Sequence record: CP053388.1
Direction: 5' to 3' (one strand)
From: Escherichia phage CMS-2020a
Length of the DNA: 64,000 nt
Every line of letters begins with the position of its first letter. The stretch's first letter is position 1. Below the pieces are notes generated by a model. That model was not told the origin of the DNA. It worked only from the letters and a program-made list of their open reading frames with translations, and did not search any database. Made by a program: the position numbers and the translations under genes. Positions 2,223 through 63,031 of the stretch are shown in pieces.

Positions 2223-2398
2223 GCTGCCACCTCTTTGATTACATCAAATGCTGAATTAAATACGAGCACGATAGCCAAAGCGTTTATGACTACGTCGTGC
2301 ACCGGGGAAAAGACTTTACGAATGACACCAGTGAAAATGCAGTCGATGACAAAAGCTATTGAAACGATGAGTAACAAGTATTCAATAAAAATCTTCAT
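2219..2398 (-). CDS. small membrane protein (59 aa), not in supplied ORF track
   Basis: hand-translated MKIFIEYLLLIVSIAFVIDCIFTGV...; hydrophobic; stop TGA overlaps ATG of 1887..2222. Confidence 0.35.
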   Translation of the reverse strand: MKIFIEYLLLIVSIAFVIDCIFTGVIRKVFSPVHDVVINALAIVLVFNSAFDVIKEVAA

Positions 2399-2437
2399 GA
2401 TAGGTAGATACTAACTTATATAAACTTTACTGTAAAC

Positions 2438-2713
2438 TCACTCAAAAGTGCTGATGCTTAAAATACGCTCAAGATGTTCAGCATCTTCATTACTGATTTG
2501 TTGAGTCTCTTCTACGTACCAACAGTTGCCGTTATGCCAACAAACACCATCATCATCAACCATCACTGAATCAGCGTCATGACCTGTATATTCAACAAGA
2601 GTACGCTGGATCAGCGCGTCAGTTTCTTCATCGTTAAGGCCATCGACTTTGACCATAAAAAGCGGAAACACGTCATAGACAGTGCTGGTAACGATTCGAA
2701 CTAAAACTCTCAT
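2438..2713 (-). CDS. hypothetical acidic protein (91 aa)
   Basis: ORF with RBS-like sequence upstream; D/E-rich. Confidence 0.45.
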   Translation of the reverse strand: MRVLVRIVTSTVYDVFPLFMVKVDGLNDEETDALIQRTLVEYTGHDADSVMVDDDGVCWHNGNCWYVEETQQISNEDAEHLERILSISTFE

Positions 2714-2768
2714 GTGTTTTTCCTTTTGTGGTTAGTGTTTACTTATTTTGTTAGTTATGAATAGGCGA

Positions 2769-3194
2769 TCAATCTTCTTGTTTAGGGAAAAACTGTTCAA
2801 TAACTCTGTCAACGGCTGTGTCTATATGGAGTAGATGCCACACAACCATATCTTTGCTTCCCATGCCTTGTGTGAATATCACGTCATACTTACGCCATGC
2901 GCAGTGGAACCAATATGCTGAGTCATCAATTGGTAAATCCTCTCCCGCCTCTTTGAAGTATTTCAGCAGCATTGCCTGCTCTGCCGTTGGCGTTGGACCT
3001 ATTTCCTGAGCGTACATACGGATGAATCGCTGCCAGTCTGTCTCGTCGGGGGTTGGATCTGGTGGGGTCATTTCTGCGATAGCGTTTCGTAGCTGATGCG
3101 CCCAATCAGGTTCAGGAAAGCCTTTTGCTACTTCATCATCAATAACATCCAGAGCCACGTTTGCGGCATCGTAGAGTTTCTTAATAACTGTCAT
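2769..3194 (-). CDS. hypothetical acidic protein (141 aa)
   Basis: ORF; AAACAAATTGTTT palindrome about 20 bp upstream of its start. Confidence 0.45.
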   Translation of the reverse strand: MTVIKKLYDAANVALDVIDDEVAKGFPEPDWAHQLRNAIAEMTPPDPTPDETDWQRFIRMYAQEIGPTPTAEQAMLLKYFKEAGEDLPIDDSAYWFHCAWRKYDVIFTQGMGSKDMVVWHLLHIDTAVDRVIEQFFPKQED

Positions 3195-3244
3195 GTTTTC
3201 TTATCCTTTTAAACAAATTGTTTTCTTAATAAGATAATTTCGAT

Positions 3245-3278
3245 AAAAAAGGCGTCCAACTGGACGCCTGAACTTTTT
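3245..3278 (-). terminator. intrinsic terminator GGCGTCC-AACT-GGACGCC flanked by A-run and T-run
   Basis: hairpin plus T-tract (on minus strand) directly after stop of 3286..4116. Confidence 0.6.
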
Positions 3279-3285
3279 AGGGGAG

Positions 3286-4116
3286 TTATTTCACTGTAAT
3301 GAAAGGAGTGTTAGCCCCTTGAGTCATGTACTGCGGTAACTGGCCATTCCATTTATTGATGGCTTCCAGCTCCATAACGTTCGGGTTTTGACGCAGAGCT
3401 TCACCGCGCAGACGAATGGCGTCTGCTTCTGCTTGCGCACGAGCACGGATAGCATCAGCTTCACCATTAGCCTGTTCACGTAGCATATTCGCCTCAGCTT
3501 TACGTTGTTCAACTTCCTGCTGACGTTGCAGAGTACGCTGGTTAGCCGTTACTTTGGCGTTGATAGATTCAATGACGGTTTTTGGGTAATCAGGCTTTCC
3601 AACCCATGACAGGCTCAGTACCTCAATACCAACCGGAGACATCTCTTTCTGAATATCTTTCAGTGCGTTGTCCAGCAATTGCGCCTTACCACCGTCGATA
3701 AATGAGTCAGTGGTCATACGGCTGGCCAAACGGTTTAGAGAGTCGGCAATTTTCTGACGCAGATCTGATTCGGTGATATCGTCTACGCCTTTGCGATAGG
3801 TCTGGAACACCGTCGTTACCTTGTCACGATTAACCAGATACGCAACGCCAATTTTGTGACCAATAGCAGTACCGTCACTCATCTGGAATGTGAACGGTTC
3901 GTCGTAGGTCTTCATTTGTTTGAAGGTCGGGAATACGTAAAGTTCGGTGTTAAGACCTGTCCATTGGCGACCAACGCCAACCACTTCACCGATCCCTTTG
4001 TCTTCACCTAATTTGTTTACTTTGATGCCAACGTATCCAGGCTCCACGCGATCACAGCCAGTAAGACCCATTGTGCAAATAGCCGCCAGAGCAACTGCAA
4101 GTAAACCTTTCTTCAT
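3286..4116 (-). CDS. SPFH/band-7 (stomatin/prohibitin-like) domain lipoprotein
   Basis: signal peptide with lipobox LTGC; C-terminal Ala/Glu/Arg-rich coiled-coil typical of SPFH proteins; domain call from recalled family features. Confidence 0.55.
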   Translation of the reverse strand: MKKGLLAVALAAICTMGLTGCDRVEPGYVGIKVNKLGEDKGIGEVVGVGRQWTGLNTELYVFPTFKQMKTYDEPFTFQMSDGTAIGHKIGVAYLVNRDKVTTVFQTYRKGVDDITESDLRQKIADSLNRLASRMTTDSFIDGGKAQLLDNALKDIQKEMSPVGIEVLSLSWVGKPDYPKTVIESINAKVTANQRTLQRQQEVEQRKAEANMLREQANGEADAIRARAQAEADAIRLRGEALRQNPNVMELEAINKWNGQLPQYMTQGANTPFITVK

Positions 4117-4119
4117 TAC

Positions 4120-4320
4120 TTATTTCCCCTTTGCTTTGATTAATGAGTTGATAAACTTACGACCAGCAATAAGACCGATTACAGGAGCACCAAAACCAAC
4201 GATAACTCCAAACATGACGGCTAAATCACTCTTGGTGGAAATCAGCGACGGAACCAGTAAACCGTAGATGAGAGCCACTGAAACGCCTGTGGCTACTGCC
4301 AATAGATAGATTTTGATCAT
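4120..4320 (-). CDS. small two-helix membrane protein (66 aa)
   Basis: two hydrophobic segments; 3 bp upstream of SPFH gene. Confidence 0.5.
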   Translation of the reverse strand: MIKIYLLAVATGVSVALIYGLLVPSLISTKSDLAVMFGVIVGFGAPVIGLIAGRKFINSLIKAKGK

Positions 4321-4383
4321 GTGTTTTCCTATGTGGTTGTTATGCGAAAATAATAAGTAAGTACTTATCTATTTTCAAGAGAT

Positions 4384-4407
4384 AAAAAAGGCGTCCTGTG
4401 GACGCCT
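4384..4407 (-). terminator. intrinsic terminator AGGCGTCC-TGT-GGACGCCT plus T-run
   Basis: hairpin and T-tract immediately after stop of RecA-like gene. Confidence 0.6.
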
Positions 4408-4412
4408 TGTGT

Positions 4413-5486
4413 TTACTCTTCTACTGACTCGGTGGGGTTGTCTTTTGCTCTTCGGTCGTCGATTGCCTGCAAAGCCGCAATGATTTCAGCCAGTGGCTTC
4501 TCCCGATACATCTCGACGATCTGCGATTTGGTGTATTTCTTGTCACCAATTTCAACTCGCCCGCTGGCGTTCTTTGGCAGGTATCCTTCTTCCAGCATGT
4601 ACTCGACGAGCGATTCGATAACGTCGAGGCCACGAGTAGGATCGAAGTAGAATTTCCAGGTGCATTTGCCATACGGTGGTGCAACTTTGTTTTTGATGCA
4701 TTCTGCGCCTACGTCCTGGCCGATCTTCTCTTTACCATCCTTCATCACCGATGCACCAAGACGGATACGTACAGAAGCGTAGAACTTCGGTGAATCTCCA
4801 CCTGGCGACGTAGTAGGGTCGCCAAACATTACACCGATTTTTGTGCGAACCTGATTCAAGAAGATGATGCAGGCGTTGTATTTGCGTGCCCACAAAGCCA
4901 GAGTAGGGAAGTTCGCACTTGTCGCACGAGCCAGTGCCGTATTGTCGTTCATGTTTAGCTGATCTTTGTCTTTGGCAGTGCCTTCAGCCATCTTTTCGAA
5001 CTTCTCGGCTTTGGAGTTCGGAACCATAGACGCAAGTGAGTCAGCCACGATACAGATAGGTGCTGATTCAGGAATAAGCTCTTCATCACGTACCAATTTA
5101 AGAATTGTGCCGATCAACTCTACAGAGTCTTCGAAGGTATCAGGCTGCTTGTATACCCACTGACCGTCATCCTCATCTGCGTTCAGGCCATTGGCTACAG
5201 CCAGGCCAACGTCAAAACTGTTTTCATGATCGAGGAATACCGCCAGACCATCTTGTTTTTGAGCGGAGATCATCGCTGCTGTTGCAAGGAACGTTTTCCC
5301 TGCACTTGGAGGACCGAATACTTCGACGATACGACCACATGGGAAGCCGCCATCGTAACGACCAGAAATAGCTTTGTTTAACGGTGGAAAGCCTGTATCA
5401 ATCCAATGAGTTACTTTCTGAATTTCGTCGTTGCTACCGATTTTCTTTTTCAGAGCAAGTGCCAGTGCGGATTTTCCTTTTGCCAT
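4413..5486 (-). CDS. RecA/UvsX-family recombinase ATPase
   Basis: Walker A GPPSAGKT, RecA-like core spacing. Confidence 0.7.
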   Translation of the reverse strand: MAKGKSALALALKKKIGSNDEIQKVTHWIDTGFPPLNKAISGRYDGGFPCGRIVEVFGPPSAGKTFLATAAMISAQKQDGLAVFLDHENSFDVGLAVANGLNADEDDGQWVYKQPDTFEDSVELIGTILKLVRDEELIPESAPICIVADSLASMVPNSKAEKFEKMAEGTAKDKDQLNMNDNTALARATSANFPTLALWARKYNACIIFLNQVRTKIGVMFGDPTTSPGGDSPKFYASVRIRLGASVMKDGKEKIGQDVGAECIKNKVAPPYGKCTWKFYFDPTRGLDVIESLVEYMLEEGYLPKNASGRVEIGDKKYTKSQIVEMYREKPLAEIIAALQAIDDRRAKDNPTESVEE

Positions 5487-18933: not shown

Positions 18934-19179
18934 TTACAGAGTGCTCGCAAAAGCAGCAAATTCTGTGTATCCGCCAATCGGCTGGCCATCGATCAGCACC
19001 TGGGGGATCGTCTCTACCGGTTTACCAACAATTTCGCTAAGTTTTTCCTTCTCGATACCGGCAGTGGTGATGTCGATGTACTCATAATCACCGTAGCCAT
19101 GTCCCTTTAGTTGCTTCGCCAGCTCGACCGCACGTTTGCAGTATGAGCAGTTATCTCGTCCGTAGATAGTGATCGTCAT
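18934..19179 (-). CDS. glutaredoxin / NrdH-like redoxin
   Basis: CSYC active-site motif near N-terminus, 81 aa thioredoxin-fold length. Confidence 0.8.
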   Translation of the reverse strand: MTITIYGRDNCSYCKRAVELAKQLKGHGYGDYEYIDITTAGIEKEKLSEIVGKPVETIPQVLIDGQPIGGYTEFAAFASTL

Positions 19180-19352
19180 AACTTAACAGATGCCTTTATA
19201 AATATTGATTCGAACATATCAGACTATACTACAAACAGATTTTTTTGATAAGTATGTAGTAACTTATTGATTGACTAGTAAGCAATTGAAGTGATTACGA
19301 CAATAGATTAGAGTAAGGATTGCCTTGAAATGTACATTTTATAGAGGTTTTA

Positions 19353-20261
19353 ATGATTGGTAAGTTGTCTGATTCTTTGATTGAAAATAAATACAACGAA
19401 TTTAGAGAAGAAATATCTTTACTTTTTGACTATTTAAATCAGATAAATGATACAACAAAGAAAAATATAAAACGTCTTCTTAAAGAAGTGGAGTATGCAC
19501 AGAATCCAGATACTATTATTAATATTAATGAAACTATTAAGATTAAGTGTGGCACAACGTTAGCTCGCCATTTATGTTCAAACCCATATACAGGTTCAAC
19601 ATTAGAGATAGGTAACAGCGCCATTGATTTAGAAGAAAAGATAAGATTGTGTAATACTTTGAAAAATAAACAATATCAGTGGGTTATTACTGAAGCCTAT
19701 GAGTTACTGGAAGACTATATTGAGGCAATATATGTCTATACTGTATGTGTTCGAAATGATTTATGGTCCTCAAGTGATTTTGGTAAGGTTGAAGATGATG
19801 AAATTGGGAAAAGGGAAGTTTATTACAGATTATTAAAAGCAAAAAGTAACCCATCGAAAAAAATAACTAAAATTTTCAGAAATAAAATACCTGGTTTCAA
19901 AGAGATAGAAACAAACAACAAGATTGGCAAAAACTATCGCTTTAACATCAAGCTAATTGAACTACTAAGACATACAATAGTACACAATAGTGGACGATTC
20001 AATGATACAGAAAAATTTATAAATAAGGTTTTAGATGAATCTGAAATAAACGGTAAGAAAAGAGTTATTGGAGAAAGAGCTGTTAGAAGTTACATTACTA
20101 AAGTGCAAGAAGATGATATTGTGATGCTCTTAGAAAGACCATCTGAAATTTTAGGTTCTTTTGGTGGGTATTTTAACAGAGCAAAATTTTTACTAAGTGA
20201 TATTTTAGAATACTCACTAATCATTAAAGAAGAACTAAAATCATATCTAGGCAATCATTAA
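19353..20261 (+). CDS. AT-rich foreign gene; HEPN-motif protein, possible Abi-like abortive-infection/defence protein
   Basis: GC content visibly far below neighbours; own AT-rich upstream region and terminator; RHTIVH fits Rx4-6H HEPN motif. Confidence 0.5.
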   Translation: MIGKLSDSLIENKYNEFREEISLLFDYLNQINDTTKKNIKRLLKEVEYAQNPDTIININETIKIKCGTTLARHLCSNPYTGSTLEIGNSAIDLEEKIRLCNTLKNKQYQWVITEAYELLEDYIEAIYVYTVCVRNDLWSSSDFGKVEDDEIGKREVYYRLLKAKSNPSKKITKIFRNKIPGFKEIETNNKIGKNYRFNIKLIELLRHTIVHNSGRFNDTEKFINKVLDESEINGKKRVIGERAVRSYITKVQEDDIVMLLERPSEILGSFGGYFNRAKFLLSDILEYSLIIKEELKSYLGNH

Positions 20262-25301: not shown

Positions 25302-26555
25302 TTATGATAGAGCCTTAATGCCCAAAACCTTGCTTTGCAACTCCAACTGCTTGGTATACGGTTTTGCCCGATAATAGGCTTTGATGATTTGCTCTGGCGT
25401 TGCATCGCCCGGGTCGAGTCCTTCCTCACCCAAACACGCAACTTTGACATTAAAACCGATACTGGTCAGTCGCCTGGCTGCGGCCATCGTGTTGCGTATA
25501 GCTTGCTTTTCACTATCCCACATCATGATCACATTACGTAACCCACGCGCCTTGAGCGTCAGGAACGCGCCTAACTGATCTTCTGCATCCTGAGTGGTGT
25601 TACCAGATAGATGCATCCCGAACGTTCCTATTGGTTCCACGTAATCACGTAATGTTTCTTCGTCAAAAATAGCTCGTTTAACCCCCATAACATCGAACGC
25701 CCCCTCACAGACAACTACAGTCTGTTTGCCGACTGCATTATGGCCGTTGTAGAGAAACTTACCTGAAGCTGGAAGTTGCATAGGAAAGAGGTAGCGGCGT
25801 TCTGCTGTACCGGTAATGTCTCGTCCCTGAAATGTCTTCATTACCCCATCCAGATCGTAAACCGGTATCAGTATTCGCATATCGAATATCTGTCCTTTAA
25901 CCTGATCTGTATACGGATCTACATAGGCGTGCTTGCCTTCGACGCAGTATCGTAGGTCAAAATACTTTGCCATTTCAGGCGATATGTTTCGTTCAACCAG
26001 ATAGTCTGGAAGACGGCCATCTATAGGAAGCTCGTAATGACGAGGGAGTGCAACTGGCCCCTCTAACTCGACTGTGCTTGCAAGCACTAGCTCTTCTTTC
26101 TTTGGTGCCCACCCCTGGGAAAGAAGGGCGTTCTGCACATATTCCTCGAACTGTCGTCGTGATTTGCCGCTGTAGTGCTTGAGGAAGACCAGCTTATTGA
26201 ACTGAATCTCTTCGGGATGATCACCAGCGAAGCATTTACCGACGCCACTGGTCAGATTGAAATATACCTTCCAGTTGGAGCTGCCGCATACCGGACACTC
26301 CTTGATATTCACTTCACGACCGCGAGTACTCACGCCTCCACGTCGATAAACGATACCTTCAGTATCCAACCATTGTTCAAAATCTAATTCGGTAATTAGC
26401 TCTTTCAGCTCGCTCACGATAATTCCACTTTTAACAGGCAATATTGTGACCAACCTAAATGTTGATATAACATAAAGGCTCATGTGTTTTTCTTTTGTGG
26501 TTTGGCAAAAGAAAAGTTGTTTCACCAATGAATCAAGCGTGGAGGTGTTCTCCAC
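25302..26555 (-). CDS. DNA primase (DnaG-like, zinc-ribbon plus TOPRIM)
   Basis: zinc-binding CPVCGSS and downstream Cys, acidic TOPRIM-like segment; start may lie at an internal Met. Confidence 0.75.
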   Translation of the reverse strand: MENTSTLDSLVKQLFFCQTTKEKHMSLYVISTFRLVTILPVKSGIIVSELKELITELDFEQWLDTEGIVYRRGGVSTRGREVNIKECPVCGSSNWKVYFNLTSGVGKCFAGDHPEEIQFNKLVFLKHYSGKSRRQFEEYVQNALLSQGWAPKKEELVLASTVELEGPVALPRHYELPIDGRLPDYLVERNISPEMAKYFDLRYCVEGKHAYVDPYTDQVKGQIFDMRILIPVYDLDGVMKTFQGRDITGTAERRYLFPMQLPASGKFLYNGHNAVGKQTVVVCEGAFDVMGVKRAIFDEETLRDYVEPIGTFGMHLSGNTTQDAEDQLGAFLTLKARGLRNVIMMWDSEKQAIRNTMAAARRLTSIGFNVKVACLGEEGLDPGDATPEQIIKAYYRAKPYTKQLELQSKVLGIKALS

Positions 26556-26564
26556 GCTTATTTT

Positions 26565-27905
26565 TTAGGTAACGTCTAAGATTCGCTCAATGAAGCGCAT
26601 TTGTTCGAGGTTTTGTTTAACGCGAATGCTGATCCCTCCCTGCTGGTTACGTGAACCGGCAAAGTAGAGACGAGCCTCTCCTTTCGCTTCTTCTTCTTCT
26701 GTTTTGTTGATCGTTATTACCAGGTCAGCAATACGTACTTTTTCGATGTTGTCGGCAGCGTGCATCATTGTGGCAACTTCTGACGCGCCACCTTCACGGT
26801 TTGTTTGCGATGCTGTGATACCAGCAACGTTGTGTTTGTCATAAAGAGCACGTAAGTCGGTATAGATACTACGTATGTTGGCGCGATCATCACGAAGGTC
26901 ATAACTGGCACGCATCAAATCTGCATAGTCGACAACAACCATGTCAGGCACCATGCCATTGGCTTTCATGCTGTTAAGCATACGATCCAGATCTGCCGGT
27001 GACATACTTCCTGACGGACGCTCAACAACCCACAAACTACCAATCCCCTTCGTGGCTCCCAACTCTGCCAACTTACGATGAACCTCATCGCGCCGTTCCA
27101 CCAGCTTGGACATTTCTGTCTCCGACAATCTTGCATCAAAACGGTCGGATAAAATGGTGGTGTGAACCTCCAGCGAGAGATACAGAACATTGTAGCCAGC
27201 AAGTGTTGCGTTTATGGAAAACTCACCCATTGCGGTCGATTTACCGGATTTAGCGAACCCCATGAAGAGCACCATTTCACGCTTCGCCCAGCCTTTTTGG
27301 TACAGCAACCTATCGAGCAGAGGGAGTCCAGTTGTAATGCTGTTTGGCACATACTCCTCTGAAGCCTCATATTCACGCGCCTTCAATCGCTCACTTGCGG
27401 AGGTGTAGTAGTCATAGATTCCGGTCGCTTCGTTCGATCCAATCTGCTGAACCTTGGCCATGATTGCCATCGCCCCCTGAAAGTCGCCCTTCTCTTTCAG
27501 TTCAGCAGCCTTAATCAGAGCATCATCAAACGCTACGCTTTTTGCGAAGGTTGATACCTGGTCAACCATGTACGAGGTATCGGACAATTTTTCTGCAAGG
27601 ATGCGCTTAAACGCAGCAACAACATCGGCGAATAGTTCCTCACGGATAGTCTTATCGCGTTTCGCACGCTTAAGCATATCCAGAATTGCAGATGAAGAGG
27701 GCGCGCTCTTGTACATACGGTAATAGCCCGAAACCATATTAACCAATATGGCATTGGCCGCATTGGCAAATTGGCTAGGTACAACCAGATCTCCAGCACG
27801 AGTAAGAAACTCGTGATCACGACAAAAATAGGCCGTCAATCTGTTCTGAAAATCTTCATCAAACTCTTCGGACAGCCCGCGTCCTGTATGGCAAAGTTCG
27901 GTCAT
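26565..27905 (-). CDS. replicative DNA helicase (DnaB-like)
   Basis: Walker A GFAKSGKST, Walker B VVVDYADL, RecA-like C-terminal domain. Confidence 0.8.
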   Translation of the reverse strand: MTELCHTGRGLSEEFDEDFQNRLTAYFCRDHEFLTRAGDLVVPSQFANAANAILVNMVSGYYRMYKSAPSSSAILDMLKRAKRDKTIREELFADVVAAFKRILAEKLSDTSYMVDQVSTFAKSVAFDDALIKAAELKEKGDFQGAMAIMAKVQQIGSNEATGIYDYYTSASERLKAREYEASEEYVPNSITTGLPLLDRLLYQKGWAKREMVLFMGFAKSGKSTAMGEFSINATLAGYNVLYLSLEVHTTILSDRFDARLSETEMSKLVERRDEVHRKLAELGATKGIGSLWVVERPSGSMSPADLDRMLNSMKANGMVPDMVVVDYADLMRASYDLRDDRANIRSIYTDLRALYDKHNVAGITASQTNREGGASEVATMMHAADNIEKVRIADLVITINKTEEEEAKGEARLYFAGSRNQQGGISIRVKQNLEQMRFIERILDVT

Positions 27906-27948
27906 GTGCTTTCCTTTGTTTTTTAAACAAATTGTTTTCTAGTATTAG

Positions 27949-28698
27949 TTAATTAGATAGGGGATCAATAAACCGCCGTGCTTCTTCCAGTTCTTCTGGA
28001 AAGTGGGCGGAAATAAGGCGCTCTGGAACGATTTCCATTAGCCAGATAGCGGAGAAAATTGCGCGTATGCGCTTGCTGCGGGGGATGGTGCGTAAACGCT
28101 CCAGAATCCACTCAAAATAGCTTTCCTGAATCGGGTTGAACTGCATGTCTCCCATATGCTTAAAGCTAACGAGAGAGTCATCCAGACGGGTTGTTGCGCG
28201 TCTGGCTAATTTCTCTTCAAATATCTCAATCAGTTCTGGCTGCCACAAATGCTGTGGGCGCGGCAGCTTGTCCCACAGCCGTCGTGCAGCTGCGGAAAGA
28301 ACGGTGGAGATAAAGTAGTCGTATGAGCAGCAATAGCGATCCGCAAACTGGCGTGCTTTCCATAGCGACGTTTTGTTGGCAGTCGACAACTCCTGATAAG
28401 GCAGACGTTTTAACCCGGTGGTGAACGGAGCTGTTTCAAAGTGTTCGCGACCGTGCGTCAGCATGATATTTGAGTACTGACGTTTGTATGCCTCCGTAAA
28501 AAGACAGGTGGCCATGAGAGGATGCATGTCGCGGTAATCAAACCACTTCGTCTCGAAGAGTTCAGCCTCGTCTTTACAGCGCGACAAACCAATGTTTTCA
28601 GCGACCCACTTGTCCATAACAGCGGTATTCCACTCTGTCATGAAGTCGTACTGGTCGTTGTCGATGGTATCGAAAAAGATTTGGCTCATGTGGCTCAC
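27949..28698 (-). CDS. hypothetical protein (249 aa), possibly replication-associated
   Basis: first ORF of helicase-primase operon, no motif recognised. Confidence 0.4.
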   Translation of the reverse strand: MSHMSQIFFDTIDNDQYDFMTEWNTAVMDKWVAENIGLSRCKDEAELFETKWFDYRDMHPLMATCLFTEAYKRQYSNIMLTHGREHFETAPFTTGLKRLPYQELSTANKTSLWKARQFADRYCCSYDYFISTVLSAAARRLWDKLPRPQHLWQPELIEIFEEKLARRATTRLDDSLVSFKHMGDMQFNPIQESYFEWILERLRTIPRSKRIRAIFSAIWLMEIVPERLISAHFPEELEEARRFIDPLSN

Positions 28699-28805
28699 CT
28701 GGTAGGTAGTTACTTACTTATCACAATGAGCGGATGATAGCGACTGGTGGCAGTTTTTGGAAGTGGAAACGGAAGGGAGTTGTTCTGGTGGTGTCTTTTA
28801 AAAGA

Positions 28806-28860
28806 CCTGCTTCCGTATATATTTAATAAGTTACTTATTATTTATATATACAGAAGCAGG
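28806..28860. repeat. 55-bp near-perfect palindrome, copy 1 (identical to 61526..61580)
   Basis: CCTGCTTCCGTATATATTTAATAAGTTACTTATTATTTATATATACAGAAGCAGG read at both loci. Confidence 0.9.
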
Positions 28861-28971
28861 CATAACTTGTCGTCTTAGACGCCCAGAAGCTCTACACTTT
28901 GAGCCTGTTAAATTGATTAAAAACTTATGTGTAAAATAGAACGCATTAGTCAGTAGCAAAGAGATGCAATA

Positions 28972-29739
28972 ATGGACGATTTATCGGTATACGCGAGATC
29001 ATTGGATAAGGCTAAATACTATGTTTACTGTCTCTATGATACAGAAGACAAGATGAAAAGACCGTTTTACATAGGAAAAGGCAAATCGACTCGTTGTCTC
29101 GATCACATCAAGTATCCCGATGACTCTCCCAAATCCATGCGGATCAAAGAACTTTTGGCTAATAAAAAATTAGGCATAGATATACTTCGTCATGGTATGG
29201 ATGAAACCACAGCCAAACTTGTTGAGGCGACATGCATCGACCTTATGGGGGTCGGAGAGCTTACGAATAAGGTACGAGGAAGTGGTTCCATGATGGGCAG
29301 AATATCACTGGACGCCTACCATCACTTAGTGCTGCAAGAGGAAACTGAAATTGCTCCTGATCACGCCGGTCTTGCCTTCCTGCTAAACAGCACCTACAAG
29401 TCAGGAATGTCCGCTCTGGCATTATATGAAGCTACGCGTGGCGTATGGGCAAAGGTTCCAAGAGACGAGAATCTCAAATATGCCTACGCTACATATGGTG
29501 GGCTGATAATGGAAGTTTATCAGATTGAATGCTGGGTCAAAGCCGGTTCTCAGCAGTACTTTACAAGGGATATAGCTCTTGGCCCCGACACAAAACGTTA
29601 TGAATTTGTTGGCAGAATAGCCGATGAGCATATTAGAAAACTGTATGTAGGCAAATTAATCAAGAAGCCACCAAGCTACGGTAGCCCTTTTGTGAAGGTT
29701 GGGGTGGTTAGGACTGAACATAGTGTTAGCGCGGCATAA
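28972..29739 (+). CDS. GIY-YIG domain protein (nuclease-family; homing-endonuclease-like or defence-related)
   Basis: N-terminal YVYCLYD...PFYIGKGKSTR...H matches GIY-(10-11 aa)-YIG spacing; + strand gene among minus-strand modules. Confidence 0.5.
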   Translation: MDDLSVYARSLDKAKYYVYCLYDTEDKMKRPFYIGKGKSTRCLDHIKYPDDSPKSMRIKELLANKKLGIDILRHGMDETTAKLVEATCIDLMGVGELTNKVRGSGSMMGRISLDAYHHLVLQEETEIAPDHAGLAFLLNSTYKSGMSALALYEATRGVWAKVPRDENLKYAYATYGGLIMEVYQIECWVKAGSQQYFTRDIALGPDTKRYEFVGRIADEHIRKLYVGKLIKKPPSYGSPFVKVGVVRTEHSVSAA

Positions 29740-29791
29740 AGCTGACACTGTAGTTATGCATTGGCGCAATGTACGCGCCAATGCATGATTT

Positions 29792-30151
29792 TTAACCTTT
29801 CTTCATCAACTCTCGTTTGATTTCATCGGTACGCATCGTGACATCGGCAGCGGTGATCGCCTCATTCAATTTCACGATGTCCTCGATTTCCTGCGGTGAC
29901 TTCTCTGCCAGATGGAAAATGGCTGCTCGAATCACGTCAGAACGAGTGAACTTCTCGAAGCGAGGGATGAACTTCATCATCTCCAGCAGTTCGAAGTATT
30001 CGTCCTCCAGTGACATTGTGCGGCTTTTAATTTTCTCTTTGCCACGAGTCGGGCGTCCCTGTGGTCTGACTGGTTGGCGCAAAGGAGTTGTGTTCTTAGC
30101 CGGTGCATCAGGCTCTTTGCGCTTTGCTAGGTCACCCATTTTCATGGACAT
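29792..30151 (-). CDS. ribbon-helix-helix centromere-binding protein (ParG-like small partition protein)
   Basis: 119 aa, basic N-terminal tail, RHH-like segment MSLEDEYFELLE; start overlaps parA stop. Confidence 0.5.
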   Translation of the reverse strand: MSMKMGDLAKRKEPDAPAKNTTPLRQPVRPQGRPTRGKEKIKSRTMSLEDEYFELLEMMKFIPRFEKFTRSDVIRAAIFHLAEKSPQEIEDIVKLNEAITAADVTMRTDEIKRELMKKG

Positions 30152-30819
30152 TATTCTTCTTCCTCCAGACTCAACAGATAATCTACAAATTCTTCAAACT
30201 CGGCTTCCGCCTTTTTGTCGCGCTCGCTACCGGTCATTTCAAAGATAGAACGACCAGACTCTTCCGCATCATCATAGACGTTGCGGTTATACAGATTGAC
30301 TGGCGCAGACTCGATTCCAAACGTCTCAACAATCTCTTTAGCCGCCAGAATGCGAGACACTTGTGATGGCAAAGCCGGGCACTGGTTCATGACCGCGCGG
30401 ACCTTCACTTTATCGTTTACATTGCGAACATTGTCGATAATAGGATCGATGTCACGTAAAGATTTCAAATCACGACGCTTAGGACGCAGCGGGATAATGA
30501 TAACGTCAGCCATCAGCATCGCTTGTCGCTGAATTTCGGAGTCGAAGCCACCAGCATCTACCACTACAAACTCAGCTCTACCCTGAAGCGATTTTAGGTG
30601 CTTAATGATGTCATCCTGAACGTATGCAAAAGGAATCAGCTCAAGGTCTTCGTTCTGTCGACGGTCTTCACACCAGCTCGTTGTCGTGCGCTGAATATCT
30701 ATATCGGTAATATAAACCTTCTTCTTCTTTTTGACTTTCAGGCAAACGGCAATTTGCTGGGCAACGGTGGATTTGCCAGGCCCGCCCTTTGTGCCGCCAA
30801 CCACAAAGATCTTGGTCAT
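30151..30819 (-). CDS. parA: ParA/Soj-family partition ATPase (short type Ib)
   Basis: deviant Walker A GGTKGGPGKST; 222 aa. Confidence 0.8.
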   Translation of the reverse strand: MTKIFVVGGTKGGPGKSTVAQQIAVCLKVKKKKKVYITDIDIQRTTTSWCEDRRQNEDLELIPFAYVQDDIIKHLKSLQGRAEFVVVDAGGFDSEIQRQAMLMADVIIIPLRPKRRDLKSLRDIDPIIDNVRNVNDKVKVRAVMNQCPALPSQVSRILAAKEIVETFGIESAPVNLYNRNVYDDAEESGRSIFEMTGSERDKKAEAEFEEFVDYLLSLEEEE

Positions 30820-31137
30820 TGGAGAGTTCCCTTTGCGTATATAATTATCGTCTGAAACAACTTGTTTTCTTATATGTGATATAGCCTAAATGCCTACGGC
30901 TGCGGTGTAAAGGTTAAATGGTAGGTTGTGATTAACAATTGGCAATCATAGCTTGTATTTGTCTGTTGAAAAAAGTAACAATGACCTCTATATTACAAGT
31001 ACGGTGATATGCCGTACACAATTTGATAATGCACACGTAATGGGCTATAGCCTTTTAAAGTAATTTTTGAGTCGAAAACTCAGTTTGAACAGAGGAGATT
31101 GATGGCCTTCCTACATCACGGCCATCAGGAGGAATAC

Positions 31138-31407
31138 ATGTCAGCACTAAAAAAGCAGCGCATCGATTTGAGATTAACCGATGACGATAAAAGCATCATC
31201 GAGGAAGCTGCCGCAATGTCTAACCAGAGCATTACTCAGTTTATGGTTAGCAGTGCATCTGAACGTGCCGTGAAAGTTATAGAGCAACACCGTAGACTAG
31301 TTCTGAATGAAGAATCCTGGAATCTGGTTATGGACGCTATAAGCAATCCTCCGGCACCGAACGACAAGCTGAAACGAGCTGCTGATCGTCTGAAAAGCAT
31401 GGAGTAG
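31138..31407 (+). CDS. DUF1778-type (TacA-like) RHH antitoxin
   Basis: small ORF 8 bp upstream of GNAT gene; start set at ATG 31138 with AGGAGG RBS. Confidence 0.6.
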   Translation: MSALKKQRIDLRLTDDDKSIIEEAAAMSNQSITQFMVSSASERAVKVIEQHRRLVLNEESWNLVMDAISNPPAPNDKLKRAADRLKSME

Positions 31408-31414
31408 TTTACTC

Positions 31415-31936
31415 GTGAGCAATACAACGATAGAGATTTTCTCTGGAGAGAAAGATTATGATCTAAACGGTTTTGATTGCGGCGAAGAGTCACTAAACGC
31501 CTTTTTAGCCAACCACTTAAAAAGGCAGCATGAGGGAAAAATTCTTCGTGCTTATGTGCTTTGCACTCAAGAAGAAAGGCCAAAAGTGCTAGGATATTAC
31601 ACTTTGTCAGGTAGTTGTTTTGAAAAGGAGTCCTTACCTTCAAGAAGCAAACAAAAGAAGGTTCCTTATCGGAATGTTCCAAGTGTTACTTTGGGTAGGC
31701 TGGCTTTGGACAAGTCCCTTCAAGGTCAAGGATTTGGCTCAATGCTTGTAACACATGCAATGCGCGTTGTGTACAATGCATCTCTTGCTGTAGGCATTCA
31801 TGGACTTTTCGTTGAGGCGTTAAATGACAAAGCCAAGGCGTTTTATAAAAGTTTAGGCTTTATCCAGCTGGTTGGTAACAACGAGCGTTCTTTGTTCTAT
31901 CCTACAAAATCTATCGAAAAATTGTTCGAAGAATAA
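31415..31936 (+). CDS. GNAT acetyltransferase toxin (TacT/AtaT-like)
   Basis: GNAT motif A LQGQGFGSMLV; operon arrangement with small upstream partner; GTG start. Confidence 0.65.
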   Translation: MSNTTIEIFSGEKDYDLNGFDCGEESLNAFLANHLKRQHEGKILRAYVLCTQEERPKVLGYYTLSGSCFEKESLPSRSKQKKVPYRNVPSVTLGRLALDKSLQGQGFGSMLVTHAMRVVYNASLAVGIHGLFVEALNDKAKAFYKSLGFIQLVGNNERSLFYPTKSIEKLFEE

Positions 31937-31968
31937 TGTGTTCCCCTCATTTGAGGGGAACTTCGACA

Positions 31969-32184
31969 TCACCAACCACAAACCCTCTCTCCCATCGTAT
32001 TGTGAAAAAGGATTTGGCGTTCGGTTTCTTCAGTCATTACATCATTATTGCTGATATAGATAGGCTCAGCCCCATCGCAGAACAACACGCTGGCTGTTTG
32101 TGGTTTAATGACGCACCCACTTATCATACAACTCACGATGAACGGCAGAAGCATCTTTCTGACGTATTTTACTGCTCGTCTCAT
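31969..32184 (-). CDS. o-spanin (Rz1-like outer-membrane lipoprotein) candidate
   Basis: signal peptide with lipobox ISGC; overlaps 3' end of i-spanin candidate. Confidence 0.45.
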   Translation of the reverse strand: MRRAVKYVRKMLLPFIVSCMISGCVIKPQTASVLFCDGAEPIYISNNDVMTEETERQILFHNTMGERVCGW

Positions 32185-59520: not shown

Positions 59521-60777
59521 CTATCGAGAACCACCAAGAATAACACGGTTTTTGACTGGATACCTACGATGTACTGGATAGCCCAATGCGTCTGCACTAT
59601 GCTCAATGCCACCTGTCTTATCCATATCTCGTGTTCCAGGCTTGTAGATGACTTTTTCCAGTGAATCAATCAAATGCTTGCACTTCGGATCGATATACAG
59701 CCGGATATCTCCAGATGCGGACATCAGCATTCGGTTAACAGCATTAACACGATCCGCAATTGGCGGGTGCTTTTTCGAATAATCGACACGTAAGAATCCC
59801 TTCTCTTTGAATATGTCTACGTCAGACTCCCCACGAGCATGTTGGCGATAAGCACCTGCCGGATCTGGAAATACCGTTACCTGTGATTTCCAGCGCCAGA
59901 AGCGTCTCTCAAGCTCATCACAAACTTCTGCCGTGTTAGAGGAAAAGAGCACCAATTCATCAATTGCCCATAGCTCACCATTTGGCTGAGGTTGCAAAAT
60001 TACTGAAGACATCGGGTCAATGTTGAAGTCCTGCCCTACCCATATAGGCAACCGAGGGTTGAACTGAAGCGGTTTTACATGCACGTTACGATCGAACGGG
60101 TAGTAAACGCGCCCGGACATGTTCTCAAAGCTGGCCAGGTACTCCTGAGCGAACGATTTGGGGTCCATATCGTTCTTAGCAGCTTCAATTTCCGCCGTAG
60201 GTACAAACGGAGAATCGGCAGTTACAAACTGCCAGCTCTTCCACTGTCCCTTTCTTTGCAGCTCTACGTTCTGGCCTATCGTCCACAGTTTGTGAAATTC
60301 CGAGAAGCCTTTTGGCGTACCAATGATCAGTGCACCGCCGCGTGTCGATGAAAGAGTAGGTCGTAACACCTTGTACCAGGTGTCAGCCTTCATATCCTGA
60401 AATTCATCAAGCACTACAAAATGCAACGCTACGCCGCGCAGAGTGTCAGGCTTATCAGCACCTTTGAGGGCGATCTCCGAACCGTTCTTCAACACGATTG
60501 TCATCGTGGTGTCGTTCTTTTTCCTAACCCACTTACGAGGCAGAACTTCCTGTAGATCGTCCCACAAAATCTGGCGAGCCATCTGGTAAGTAGGAGCGAC
60601 ATACCAGACCCTTTGCTTTTTTTCCTTTGCCGCCGCACGAATAATAGTGGAGATCGACAACCGGGATTTTCCCCAGCGTCGACCAGCACAAACAACTTTA
60701 AATCGATGCGGAGACTGGAAGACTTTCATCTGTCCAGAATGCAGTTGCACAAGACTGAGCGAGGACGGGATTGCCAT
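59521..60777 (-). CDS. terminase large subunit
   Basis: Walker A-like AGRRWGKS, Walker B VLDEFQD, acidic nuclease-type C-terminal region. Confidence 0.75.
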   Translation of the reverse strand: MAIPSSLSLVQLHSGQMKVFQSPHRFKVVCAGRRWGKSRLSISTIIRAAAKEKKQRVWYVAPTYQMARQILWDDLQEVLPRKWVRKKNDTTMTIVLKNGSEIALKGADKPDTLRGVALHFVVLDEFQDMKADTWYKVLRPTLSSTRGGALIIGTPKGFSEFHKLWTIGQNVELQRKGQWKSWQFVTADSPFVPTAEIEAAKNDMDPKSFAQEYLASFENMSGRVYYPFDRNVHVKPLQFNPRLPIWVGQDFNIDPMSSVILQPQPNGELWAIDELVLFSSNTAEVCDELERRFWRWKSQVTVFPDPAGAYRQHARGESDVDIFKEKGFLRVDYSKKHPPIADRVNAVNRMLMSASGDIRLYIDPKCKHLIDSLEKVIYKPGTRDMDKTGGIEHSADALGYPVHRRYPVKNRVILGGSR

Positions 60778-61409
60778 TATTCGTCCTCCCCTTCACTTCC
60801 ATCATCTGTCGCATCAAATTCGCTTAGAGCTTCTTCTTCCAACGTCTCAAGCAATTCGTCATCGATGATTTCAGGCTCGTCGTCTTCCTGACGTAATTTC
60901 GCCACCTGGGAAGGCGTAAGCTCACCAAATACCAGGTTCGGAATTTCTTCCTCGTCATTTTCCGCATGATCCATGCCCAATGCTTTGGACGAAACTTCAA
61001 AGCATTTTGCAAGGGTATTACTGGCTCTCTGTAAGCTCTTGAGAGAATCCTCAATCGCCCCTAAAGGCTTACCCTCACGTTTGGCCGTAGTGACTTCGAC
61101 CATCACCATCTGCCCCAACGCATACGCCCAGCCGTCATAACGTGTACGACGTTCTTCTATCTTTTCCGCACGGGCTTTAGCGCGAAGCTCTGCGTCAGAT
61201 TTAAGAGACTCACGAACCATCTTCCCAACAGAGTCCGCGCCTTTCTCTAATCCTCGCTTTTTGAAATGTCTGGAGAGTGTTTCACGACGAATGCCGTACT
61301 CTTCCTCCAGCTTTGAGAGTGTATATTCGCCTGACGTCCATTTGGCTTCAGCTTCGGCCCACTCCGCTGGTGTCAGGCGAGTTTTTACCTCGTCTTTTTC
61401 GACCGTCAT
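60777..61409 (-). CDS. terminase small subunit candidate
   Basis: 210 aa with HTH-like N-terminal region and acidic C-terminus; ATGA-coupled to large subunit. Confidence 0.55.
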   Translation of the reverse strand: MTVEKDEVKTRLTPAEWAEAEAKWTSGEYTLSKLEEEYGIRRETLSRHFKKRGLEKGADSVGKMVRESLKSDAELRAKARAEKIEERRTRYDGWAYALGQMVMVEVTTAKREGKPLGAIEDSLKSLQRASNTLAKCFEVSSKALGMDHAENDEEEIPNLVFGELTPSQVAKLRQEDDEPEIIDDELLETLEEEALSEFDATDDGSEGEDE

Positions 61410-61525
61410 AGATCCCTCTAAAACACACAGAGCGCGTCCATGCGCTCTAAAACAACTTGTTTACTGCATCTGCTAACCAACTTGTTTTCTGGGGTGTTTA
61501 ATTAGGTCTGGCATGTCTTACGAAG

Positions 61526-61580
61526 CCTGCTTCCGTATATATTTAATAAGTTACTTATTATTTATATATACAGAAGCAGG
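61526..61580. repeat. 55-bp near-perfect palindrome, copy 2 (identical to 28806..28860)
   Basis: exact 55-bp match read in sequence. Confidence 0.9.
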
Positions 61581-61604
61581 TCTTTAAATAAGCTCCCAGA
61601 CCGA

Positions 61605-61871
61605 TTACATCACCAGTAACTTCGCTTTGGCTCGACCTAAAGTAGTTAACCCAAGAGTTCGGCGGTGATAGCGATTGTCACTGCGTTGGCGCGTATGCCC
61701 TTTCTCCACCAGCCCCTTTTTTATCAGAGCGCGAATTGAGAACTGGATACTTTGCTTGGTTGTCTTGTACGGCAAAACTTCAAGCAATTCGTCCAGGTCA
61801 AGTAGATGACCTCGCTCATAACCGAGATTGAGCGTTTTGATGATGTCCTTTTGTTTATCGGTTAACGTCAT
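61605..61871 (-). CDS. small winged-helix/HTH protein (88 aa), candidate late regulator
   Basis: basic helix-rich ORF upstream of terminase regulatory region. Confidence 0.35.
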   Translation of the reverse strand: MTLTDKQKDIIKTLNLGYERGHLLDLDELLEVLPYKTTKQSIQFSIRALIKKGLVEKGHTRQRSDNRYHRRTLGLTTLGRAKAKLLVM

Positions 61872-61880
61872 GGCAAATCC

Positions 61881-62780
61881 TTATGCCGGTAAAGCAATTT
61901 CTAACGGTTTATCCAAAGGTTGTTTGTCGAATGCCAGCAGTGGCAGCGTGTCAGGCAGTCGACGACCAAAGTCAGGGTTTCGATACACACCATACAACGG
62001 AGACGTAAAGCTCAGGTTGTGAATGTCCTTGAGCAGCTTCACAATGCTGGCCTCGTCCACCAGACTGTCGGCAATGTCCTGAATCGTCGTGCCACGATTC
62101 CGCCCAGCTTTTGCCAGGGAACTGTTCTTGTGGTAGTCCGCCACCAGATCACGCAGTGCACGGCGACGACGAGACTCGCTCATAGCGAACAACTCTTTGA
62201 CGATCGCCTCGTTATCACCCGGGTCGGAGCGGAAATGGCGCTGGAACACACGCAGTGCACTTTCATAGCTCTTCGGTCGCTCAGGGCGGATGAACTTAAA
62301 CCCTGCTTTCATGGCGAAGGGATTGTATTTGCTCATCGATGACTGGATCTCAATGATTGGCCGGTCATGCATCCTGCTAACCAGGTTAATCATTCGATAA
62401 GAGACGCCTACGCCACGGTACTGAGTATCCACAACTGAGCGGCTGATCACCGCAAAGTTGTTATTCACGTACCGGCCCCAGTACTGGTTAGCCACGGTGG
62501 TATTGGTAGTTGGTTTCAACTTAGGAAACATGCGATGGCGAGGTGCCAGCAGAAGTTTCGGGTAAGCCATAACCACGACGCCCACCAGACGGTCATCCAG
62601 TTCGCAGCGATAGTATGTTGGCGCGAAAGGTTTGCCGTCTGTTTTGTAGTGAAGCGATTTAAGAGCGTGCCAGTCCTCTACAGTTCCCTTTGTGACAGTC
62701 ATTCGCTCCAGAAAGTCCAGATGACGCGGAAACTCTTCAGGGCGGTAGCGTTTGATGATGATATCTGCCATCTCGATCAC
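61881..62780 (-). CDS. GNAT-like acetyltransferase-fold protein with C-terminal extension
   Basis: motif-A-like QYRGVGVSYRM; 299 aa. Confidence 0.4.
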   Translation of the reverse strand: MIEMADIIIKRYRPEEFPRHLDFLERMTVTKGTVEDWHALKSLHYKTDGKPFAPTYYRCELDDRLVGVVVMAYPKLLLAPRHRMFPKLKPTTNTTVANQYWGRYVNNNFAVISRSVVDTQYRGVGVSYRMINLVSRMHDRPIIEIQSSMSKYNPFAMKAGFKFIRPERPKSYESALRVFQRHFRSDPGDNEAIVKELFAMSESRRRRALRDLVADYHKNSSLAKAGRNRGTTIQDIADSLVDEASIVKLLKDIHNLSFTSPLYGVYRNPDFGRRLPDTLPLLAFDKQPLDKPLEIALPA

Positions 62781-63031
62781 CTGCGCTCGATATTGGCATT
62801 GATGAAATCCAGGCGAAGAGACTCCATCGCCCCTACCATGACATACGGGCGCCCGCCGTTATGCCAGCAATCAAGAACACTGCCGTCGTTGTTGATCATC
62901 AACAGCGCCAGGCTCTGGCTTTTTCCTTCTCTGGCGTGCTGAAGTGCTTCTTCCAGCAGGCGGATGACTTCCACGTTGTTGTTATCAGTCTCTTTCGATG
63001 GCTTCAGCTCTACGATCTTCAAATCAGGCAT
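62777..63031 (-). CDS. hypothetical protein (84 aa)
   Basis: ORF overlapping neighbours on both sides. Confidence 0.4.
   Translation of the reverse strand: MPDLKIVELKPSKETDNNNVEVIRLLEEALQHAREGKSQSLALLMINNDGSVLDCWHNGGRPYVMVGAMESLRLDFINANIERR

Follow-up and report, generated by a model that had tools for sequence, protein, structure and literature searches.

The GIY-YIG gene and its cassette

The stretch analysed here, 64,000 nucleotides of Escherichia phage CMS-2020a (sequence record CP053388.1; called the window throughout), belongs to an SSU5/pHCM2-like phage-plasmid of E. coli. Over 5 kb it matched plasmid CP059946.1 at 99.7% identity; its identity to phages Cyrano and PhiR41_1 was about 98%, and that to SSU5 83%. 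The subject of this study is a GIY-YIG gene located at 28972..29739 on the + strand, which starts with ATG, codes for 255 amino acids (aa) and would encode a putative modification-dependent (type IV) restriction endonuclease of the PD-T4-3/CMoRE family. At present it is named "LEM-3-like GIY-YIG domain-containing protein" in RefSeq and is phrog_5356, of unknown function, in PHROGs.

An earlier note on this DNA, made from the letters alone, had described an open reading frame (ORF) with GIY-YIG-like spacing in its N-terminus, isolated on the + strand between replication and partition modules and with the first copy of a 55-bp palindrome upstream, and each of these observations was borne out. 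The ORF is present, with the N-terminal stretch ...KYYVYCLYDTEDKMKRPFYIGKGKSTRCLDH..., its residues 32-104 matched the Pfam model LEM-3_GIY-YIG (PF22945) with 30.1 bits, above the cut-off of 27 (E value, E, of 5.6e-7), and the residues of the motif are among those invariant across 94 homologues of its clade (Y17, Y19, Y33, R41, R73, E85, C88 and N99). The note had also proposed a search for T5orf172-like families: the T5orf172 Pfam model gave no match, LEM-3_GIY-YIG was the only family returned by the Pfam scan at E <= 0.1, and no NCBIfam model matched the protein.

The gene is the sole one on the + strand between the replication and partition blocks, both of which are on the - strand. On the left lie the genes of a primase (25302..26555), of a DnaB-like helicase (26565..27905) and of the 249-aa protein phrog_2500 (27949..28698), the last of which heads the helicase-primase block, forms the left backbone flank and is kept in all the relatives examined. 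The right backbone flank is the partition operon, consisting of a parB-position gene of 119 aa (29792..30151, phrog_5111) and of the gene of a 222-aa ParA protein (30151..30819; Pfam MipZ/AAA_31/CbiA/ParA, ParA-like phrog_164). The start of the parB-position gene overlaps the stop codon of parA, its product has no Pfam family, and in Cyrano it is annotated as 'RelE/ParE putative toxin'; its position and a weak, short match to the NCBIfam model aCcr1 (E 2e-4) suggest that it may encode a small centromere-binding partner of ParA.

The cassette that carries the GIY-YIG gene is 928 bp long and comprises an untranslated leader of 111 nt (28861..28971, + strand), the coding sequence and a terminator hairpin; its G+C content is slightly lower than that of the flanks (0.436 vs 0.48). 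The leader presumably carries the gene's own promoter, for which TAAAAT at 28932-28937 is a possible -10 element, and the purine-rich AAAGAGA, about 8-14 nt ahead of the ATG, would be the ribosome-binding site. Downstream, an intrinsic terminator on the + strand (29752..29793) has a 16-bp stem with a perfect 12-bp core (29756-29767 / 29775-29786) followed by GATTTTT, and adjoins the convergent stop codon of the parB-position gene. A consensus terminator scan of 28600-29900 called nothing; folding identified the terminator (-25.1 kcal/mol, z -5.6, 0/200 shuffles being as stable). There is no partner gene inside the cassette, the protein being a single component like PD-T4-3/CMoRE, and no DNA methyltransferase was found in the cassette or its flanks. 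A type II GIY-YIG restriction-modification system of the R.Eco29kI kind was rejected because it would need the methyltransferase that is missing here.

The palindrome occurs in the window in two exact copies (28806-28860 and 61526-61580), none being expected by chance, and no further diverged copies were found in it. Copy 1, which ends immediately before the 111-nt leader, is part of the backbone and marks the left edge of the slot in which the cassette sits: SSU5, Cyrano, PhiR41_1, p09EL50, plasmid p-2 of ECO-104 and pSAN1-1735, the last with an empty slot, all have it at this point of the backbone. The copies of these relatives differ by 1-3 bases, so that an exact 25-mer search missed them and alignment shows them. 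Read as RNA of the - strand, copy 1 folds into a hairpin (-30.8 kcal/mol, z -7.7) with UCUUUU directly after it; in pSAN1-1735, whose slot is empty, it lies (locus ~2120-2195) about 30 nt past the stop codon of the parB-position gene, the last one of the par operon. Copy 1 is thus probably the intrinsic terminator of the par (parA/parB-like) operon, and the cargo would have been inserted between the last par stop codon and this terminator. The palindrome accompanies every cargo and is found in the empty slot too, and for this reason it was rejected as a component or target site of the GIY-YIG cassette.

Kinship with PD-T4-3/CMoRE

PD-T4-3 was first found in ECOR68 through functional selection (cited in PMC12923530), and Liu et al. 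(Nat Commun 2026, PMC12923530) gave it the new name CMoRE; structures of the enzymes of E. coli O157:H7 and APEC O1 are available (PDB 9U75, 9U8D, 9U7U and 9U7Z; PMC12923530). CMoRE binds and cuts DNA containing 5-hydroxymethylcytosine (5hmC) or glucosyl-5hmC, and not DNA with cytosine or 5-methylcytosine, at the site CN11/N9G, leaving 3' overhangs of 2 nt; in its presence T2, T4 and T6 plate about five orders of magnitude less efficiently, the defence being direct and non-abortive (PMC12923530). Its spectrum also takes in T4(hmC), and leaves out T4(C), Mu and unmodified phages. It is a tetramer (a dimer of dimers), in which V92/L96 form the interface inside a dimer and the beta1-beta2 loop the one between dimers, and its hallmarks are a GIYxY-YIG motif (Y17, Y19 and Y31), a catalytic Arg and Glu, an acidic lid of 15 residues located between alpha2 and alpha3, and, at the C-terminus, a sensor domain for which no structural homologues were reported and a new fold was claimed (PMC12923530). 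When the lid is neutralised, as in the 4A mutant, ordinary DNA is cut and toxicity results, and the lid is present in "most" family members only (PMC12923530). In the clinical strain NILS69, PD-T4-3 is one of just two defence systems showing native activity.

CMoRE was the top match for the window protein by sequence, profile and fold, and the homology covers both domains. The PADLOC model of PD-T4-3 aligned profile positions 11-238 of 256 with residues 11-231 of the protein (E 1.5e-23), and a sequence search of the PDB returned as its only matches the four PD-T4-3/CMoRE entries named above (E 3.5e-15, query residues 12-230). A profile built from the 94 homologues matched the CMoRE of O157:H7 with 99.4% probability (E 3.6e-21, 208 columns, 35% identity). 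The earlier note had called the C-terminal ~150 aa unrecognised, a description that is now outdated: this part is homologous to the modification-sensing domain of CMoRE/PD-T4-3, which was the only match of the C-terminal 148 residues searched alone (E 2.8e-4), though Pfam is still blank there, no family being found for these 148 aa even at E <= 10. An AlphaFold2 model based on a multiple sequence alignment (predicted local distance difference test score, pLDDT, 87.3; predicted template modelling score, pTM, 0.81) has two domains joined by a linker of low confidence (residues 100-110), and the crystal structures of CMoRE likewise have no density for theirs (PMC12923530); a single-sequence model (pLDDT 33) was discarded in its favour.

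In order to compare single residues, the window protein and its clade were aligned with the two crystallised CMoRE sequences. The GIYxY-YIG tyrosines Y17, Y19 and Y31 of CMoRE are conserved as Y17, Y19 and Y33, R39 as R41, and the Glu of the VEA motif as E85. Of the intra-dimer interface residues, V92 is kept as V84 and L96 is replaced by C88; R80 is kept as R73. The C-terminal domain of the clade differs from that of CMoRE by insertions and deletions. Insertions of the HVIH- and MTSWEA-type are absent from the clade, and GV and SGMS insertions are present. The clade is made up of proteins of 245-255 aa, 50-78% identical to the window protein, from Enterobacterales, Shewanella, Zobellella and metagenomes. 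On these comparisons, membership of the protein in the PD-T4-3/CMoRE family, within a clade sister to that of the characterised enzymes, is secure.

Like CMoRE/PD-T4-3, the window protein is the product of one gene of about 255 aa without a methyltransferase partner, in which a flexible linker joins the GIY-YIG domain at the N-terminus to a C-terminal sensor; it differs in its carriage on a phage-plasmid, in its clade and in the residues considered below. From the other GIY-YIG enzymes it is set apart by the extra Tyr (GIYxY) and by a different C-terminal domain, and, in comparison with I-TevI, T4 Seg, the N-terminal domain of UvrC, T4 EndoII and R.Eco29kI, it shows no sequence-specific C-terminal DNA-binding module, no cognate methyltransferase and no insertion into or beside a target gene. 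In the EVE-HNH enzyme VcaM4I, the systems with McrB N-terminal domains and the PvuRts1I-like type IV enzymes, the nuclease is HNH or PD-(D/E)xK, in contrast to the GIY-YIG of the window protein, and the similarity of type IV reader domains to its C-terminal domain is marginal and without sequence support.

A slot with exchangeable cargo

Comparison with relatives that hold another cargo, or none, showed that the gene is not universal at this position and revealed the signature of insertion that the earlier note had proposed looking for. The alignments of the relatives break on the left immediately 3' of the palindrome (28860|28861), where divergence from relatives with other cargos begins, and converge again on the right at T(T/C)AACCTTTCTTCATCA, at about 29788|29789, some 3 nt outside the stop codon of the parB-position gene. 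Between these same boundaries, all intergenic, at least five unrelated cargos were found, and the other cargos have their own, differing hairpins at the terminator end of the slot. A DUF2971 protein encoded on the - strand occupies it in Cyrano and in many Enterobacter and Citrobacter plasmids (PADLOC candidate PDC-S31, E 3e-41 and 2e-33), and DUF2971 together with two genes of unknown function in SSU5 and pJN2-26; a 564-aa KAP-family nucleoside triphosphatase (PDC-S49, E 4e-22) is found in p09EL50 of E. coli O104:H4, and a 352-aa protein without known domain, phrog_22329, in plasmid p-2 of ECO-104. The only empty slot among the sampled relatives, with about 30 nt from palindrome to stop codon, was that of Salmonella Anatum pSAN1-1735.

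Two of these cargos had no Pfam or PADLOC match, namely phrog_22329 (NZ_CP141583.1, locus 2280-3338, + strand) and the pair SSU5_036/SSU5_035 (phrog_17322 and phrog_22270; locus 4255-4665 and 4655-5299, both on the - strand). By their position they are candidate defence genes.

Related plasmids number roughly 740. The cassette was present at >=95% identity in 135 PLSDB plasmids, and the left flank in 258, of which 188 had it at >=95% identity. Among 5,426 complete E. coli genomes 107 carried the cassette, which was borne by a plasmid every time, with no chromosomal or other location found in them. The identity between the window and pLAO18 is mosaic: the flanks are 80-85% identical, the leader 97.3% and the coding sequence 99.1%, with the step at the palindrome, and therefore the cassette has moved between diverged backbones. 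Elsewhere, homologues of the clade are solitary chromosomal genes amid housekeeping genes, as seen in the three contexts examined (Providencia, Salmonella and Shewanella). Among these contexts only that of Providencia had a nearby gene of a methyltransferase family, one of Methyltransf_10 (PF05971) at a distance of about 1.2 kb, which we take to be the ribosomal RNA methyltransferase gene rlmF, and there was none in Salmonella and Shewanella; solitary homologues without an adjacent DNA methyltransferase fit a stand-alone type IV enzyme.

Copy 2 of the palindrome lies between an 88-aa ORF (61605..61871, - strand) and the small terminase gene (60777..61409, - strand), and its surroundings have only the 55 bp in common with those of copy 1. 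It is embedded in the unbroken conserved backbone of Klebsiella, Salmonella and Yersinia pMT1-like relatives, without a variable neighbour. The palindrome as a general marker of cargo slots was rejected, since the backbone around copy 2 aligns without a break in the relatives; this copy may function as an operator, as a site of RNA processing or as a terminator.

Other variable places were observed in the window. A second slot lies just past parA (30820-32100); in the window, Cyrano and p09EL50 it holds a TacA/TacT (KacAT-like) pair of antitoxin and acetyltransferase toxin, which in the window consists of a TacA-like gene (31099..31407, + strand) and a GNAT toxin gene (31415..31936, + strand), and in PhiR41_1, SSU5 and pJN2-26 it holds unrelated genes of unknown function. 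IS1203 or IS100 is inserted within the replication-partition region of the near-identical NZ_CP028430.1, NZ_CP028433.1 and NZ_CP017847.1 (matches to window 27000-32000), and therefore this region tolerates insertions outside the slot too. Many alignments of close relatives (query 60000-63000) end at about 62763-62782, suggesting a further variable boundary upstream of a 299-aa ORF (61881..62780, - strand). Finally, the G+C content dips markedly at 19001-20000 (0.328, the value for the window being about 0.47), where GC and AT skew are positive; this segment may be another insert of foreign origin, or it may be AT-rich because it has a regulatory or origin function.

Proposed function and its alternatives

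The GIY-YIG gene most probably encodes a PD-T4-3/CMoRE-family modification-dependent restriction endonuclease, and would form a self-contained defence cassette of the phage-plasmid, directed most likely against T-even phages with hydroxymethylcytosine (hmC) or glucosyl-hmC (ghmC) in their DNA; we give this reading a probability of about 0.78. In the mechanism that we propose, the C-terminal domain would bind DNA with hypermodified bases, most probably the 5-hydroxymethyl- or glucosyl-hydroxymethyl-cytosine of T-even phages, and the N-terminal GIY-YIG domain (Y17, Y19, Y33, R41, E85 and N99) would then cleave the bound DNA. Unmodified DNA of the host and of the phage-plasmid would be spared, hence no methyltransferase partner would be needed, and the defence would be direct and not abortive. 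The gene would be expressed in the plasmid-prophage state as its own transcription unit of leader, coding sequence and terminator, on the opposite strand to its neighbours and in the slot that the par stop codon and the palindrome delimit. Phage-plasmid backbones would exchange the cassette through recombination in their conserved flanks.

Several observations weigh against this reading. The window protein belongs to a clade separate from CMoRE, with an identity to the characterised enzymes of only about 33%, and we found no experiment on this clade in the literature. Its lid (YPDDS, between alpha2 and alpha3) lacks 5 residues relative to GEVAAVDDDELL and has 2 acidic residues vs 4 consecutive ones (DD vs DDDE/DDDD), so that the hallmark 15-residue loop with four consecutive acidic residues is not seen in it; across the 94 clade members the longest acidic run in the lid was 1 in 51, 2 in 22, 3 in 5 and 4 in 16. 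The dimer-interface L96 of CMoRE is replaced by a Cys88 that is invariant in the clade. CMoRE Y127, which contacts 5hmC through its main-chain oxygen, pairs with Q122 close to the poorly aligned, low-confidence linker, a position at which the identity of the side chain says little. The global template modelling score of the model against the CMoRE crystals was only 0.38, which we ascribe to a different relative orientation of the domains, and the consensus sigma-70 scan of 28600-29900 found no site upstream of the gene at the stringency used. Finally, PD-T4-3Capno of Capnocytophaga, which is functional in E. coli and 48% identical to PD-T4-3, cuts T4 (ghmC) DNA and also Mu DNA carrying carbamoylmethyl-adenine (Rodriguez-Rodriguez et al., Cell Host Microbe 2025, PMC12366544), and because of this the specificity within the family is plastic and not confidently transferable. 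PD-T4-3Capno, which has the same family annotation as the window protein, also illustrates that a diverged homologue can keep modification-dependent nuclease function. That the window protein has exactly the specificity of CMoRE is an inference.

The low identity and separate clade, the shortened lid with 51/94 members lacking a run of at least two acidic residues, the invariant Cys, the insertions and deletions of the C-terminal domain, the activity of PD-T4-3Capno on Mu DNA and the toxicity of the CMoRE 4A mutant would all agree with a CMoRE-family nuclease that has another target (e.g. arabinosyl-hmC, Mu mom-type adenine or 7-deazaguanines), or whose reduced lid gives looser control of self and non-self, and which may act more broadly against phages or plasmids. 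We regard this as unlikely: over 130 plasmids and 107 complete genomes keep the gene stably at 98-100% identity, so that it is not overtly toxic; the catalytic core is shared with CMoRE, as is a large part of the C-terminal domain, and the lid is itself not universal in that family; and T-even phages are the commonest hypermodified predators of E. coli.

The earlier note had hesitated between a homing endonuclease and a defence effector, and the full-length homology to PD-T4-3/CMoRE speaks for the second. A free-standing homing enzyme of the Seg/I-TevI kind, which would cut the cassette-free allele between the modules and be copied in by recombinational repair, would suit an isolated GIY-YIG gene with a palindrome beside it, and is nevertheless very improbable: the C-terminal half is the CMoRE sensor domain and not NUMOD, a zinc finger or a helix-turn-helix, the slot holds several cargos rather than a simple polymorphism of presence and absence, it is intergenic and not in or beside a conserved target gene, the homologues are solitary chromosomal genes and not inserts in phage genes, and the palindrome linked to the gene belongs to the backbone whatever the cargo. 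Least probable of all is a nuclease serving the phage-plasmid's own lytic cycle or competition, whether it degrades host DNA as T4 EndoII does or acts as a toxic effector of abortive infection, since the likeness to EndoII is confined to the GIY-YIG core, the gene is not needed for lytic growth (many viable and otherwise nearly identical relatives, among them the isolated phages Cyrano and SSU5, lack it), a host-DNA nuclease could presumably not spare the element's own DNA, there being no sign here that SSU5-type DNA is modified, and the characterised members of the family act directly and not abortively.

With the modification-dependent restriction endonuclease as the preferred reading, a more far-reaching one can be put forward tentatively, as doubtful in its entirety: the short, weakly acidic lid and the interface Cys would mark a functionally distinct sister clade with another modification spectrum or another way of sparing self; its sensor, and by homology that of CMoRE too, would be a highly diverged PUA-like (EVE/YTH/ASCH) reader and not a new fold; and the slot would be an SSU5-type defence hotspot holding new defence genes (phrog_22329 and SSU5_035/036). 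For the sensor, the predicted model and marginal scores give hints of such a diverged PUA-like reader.

The hotspots of P2 and P4 are places where temperate phages carry defence and accessory genes. The slot described here resembles them, being fixed between conserved backbone genes and holding alternative known or candidate defence genes. A 2025 survey of defence systems on P1 and SSU5 phage-plasmids tabulates DefenseFinder calls of PD-T4-3 in SSU5-group elements of E. coli and Shigella; its available passages do not include the exact boundaries of the slot or the list of its occupants (bioRxiv 10.1101/2025.09.12.675607). The family, its mechanism, its structure (2026) and its occurrence on SSU5 phage-plasmids have thus been published before, and current concepts are unchanged. 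What is modestly new is the definition of the slot at the nucleotide level with its occupants, the others of which are candidate defence genes or unknowns, and the reduced lid of the window clade. A testable function is offered for a gene named so far only by its domain in RefSeq and listed as unknown in PHROGs. About 2% of complete E. coli genomes carry this putative anti-T-even enzyme on an SSU5-like phage-plasmid, which is relevant to the host range of phages used in therapy and to how temperate elements protect their hosts.
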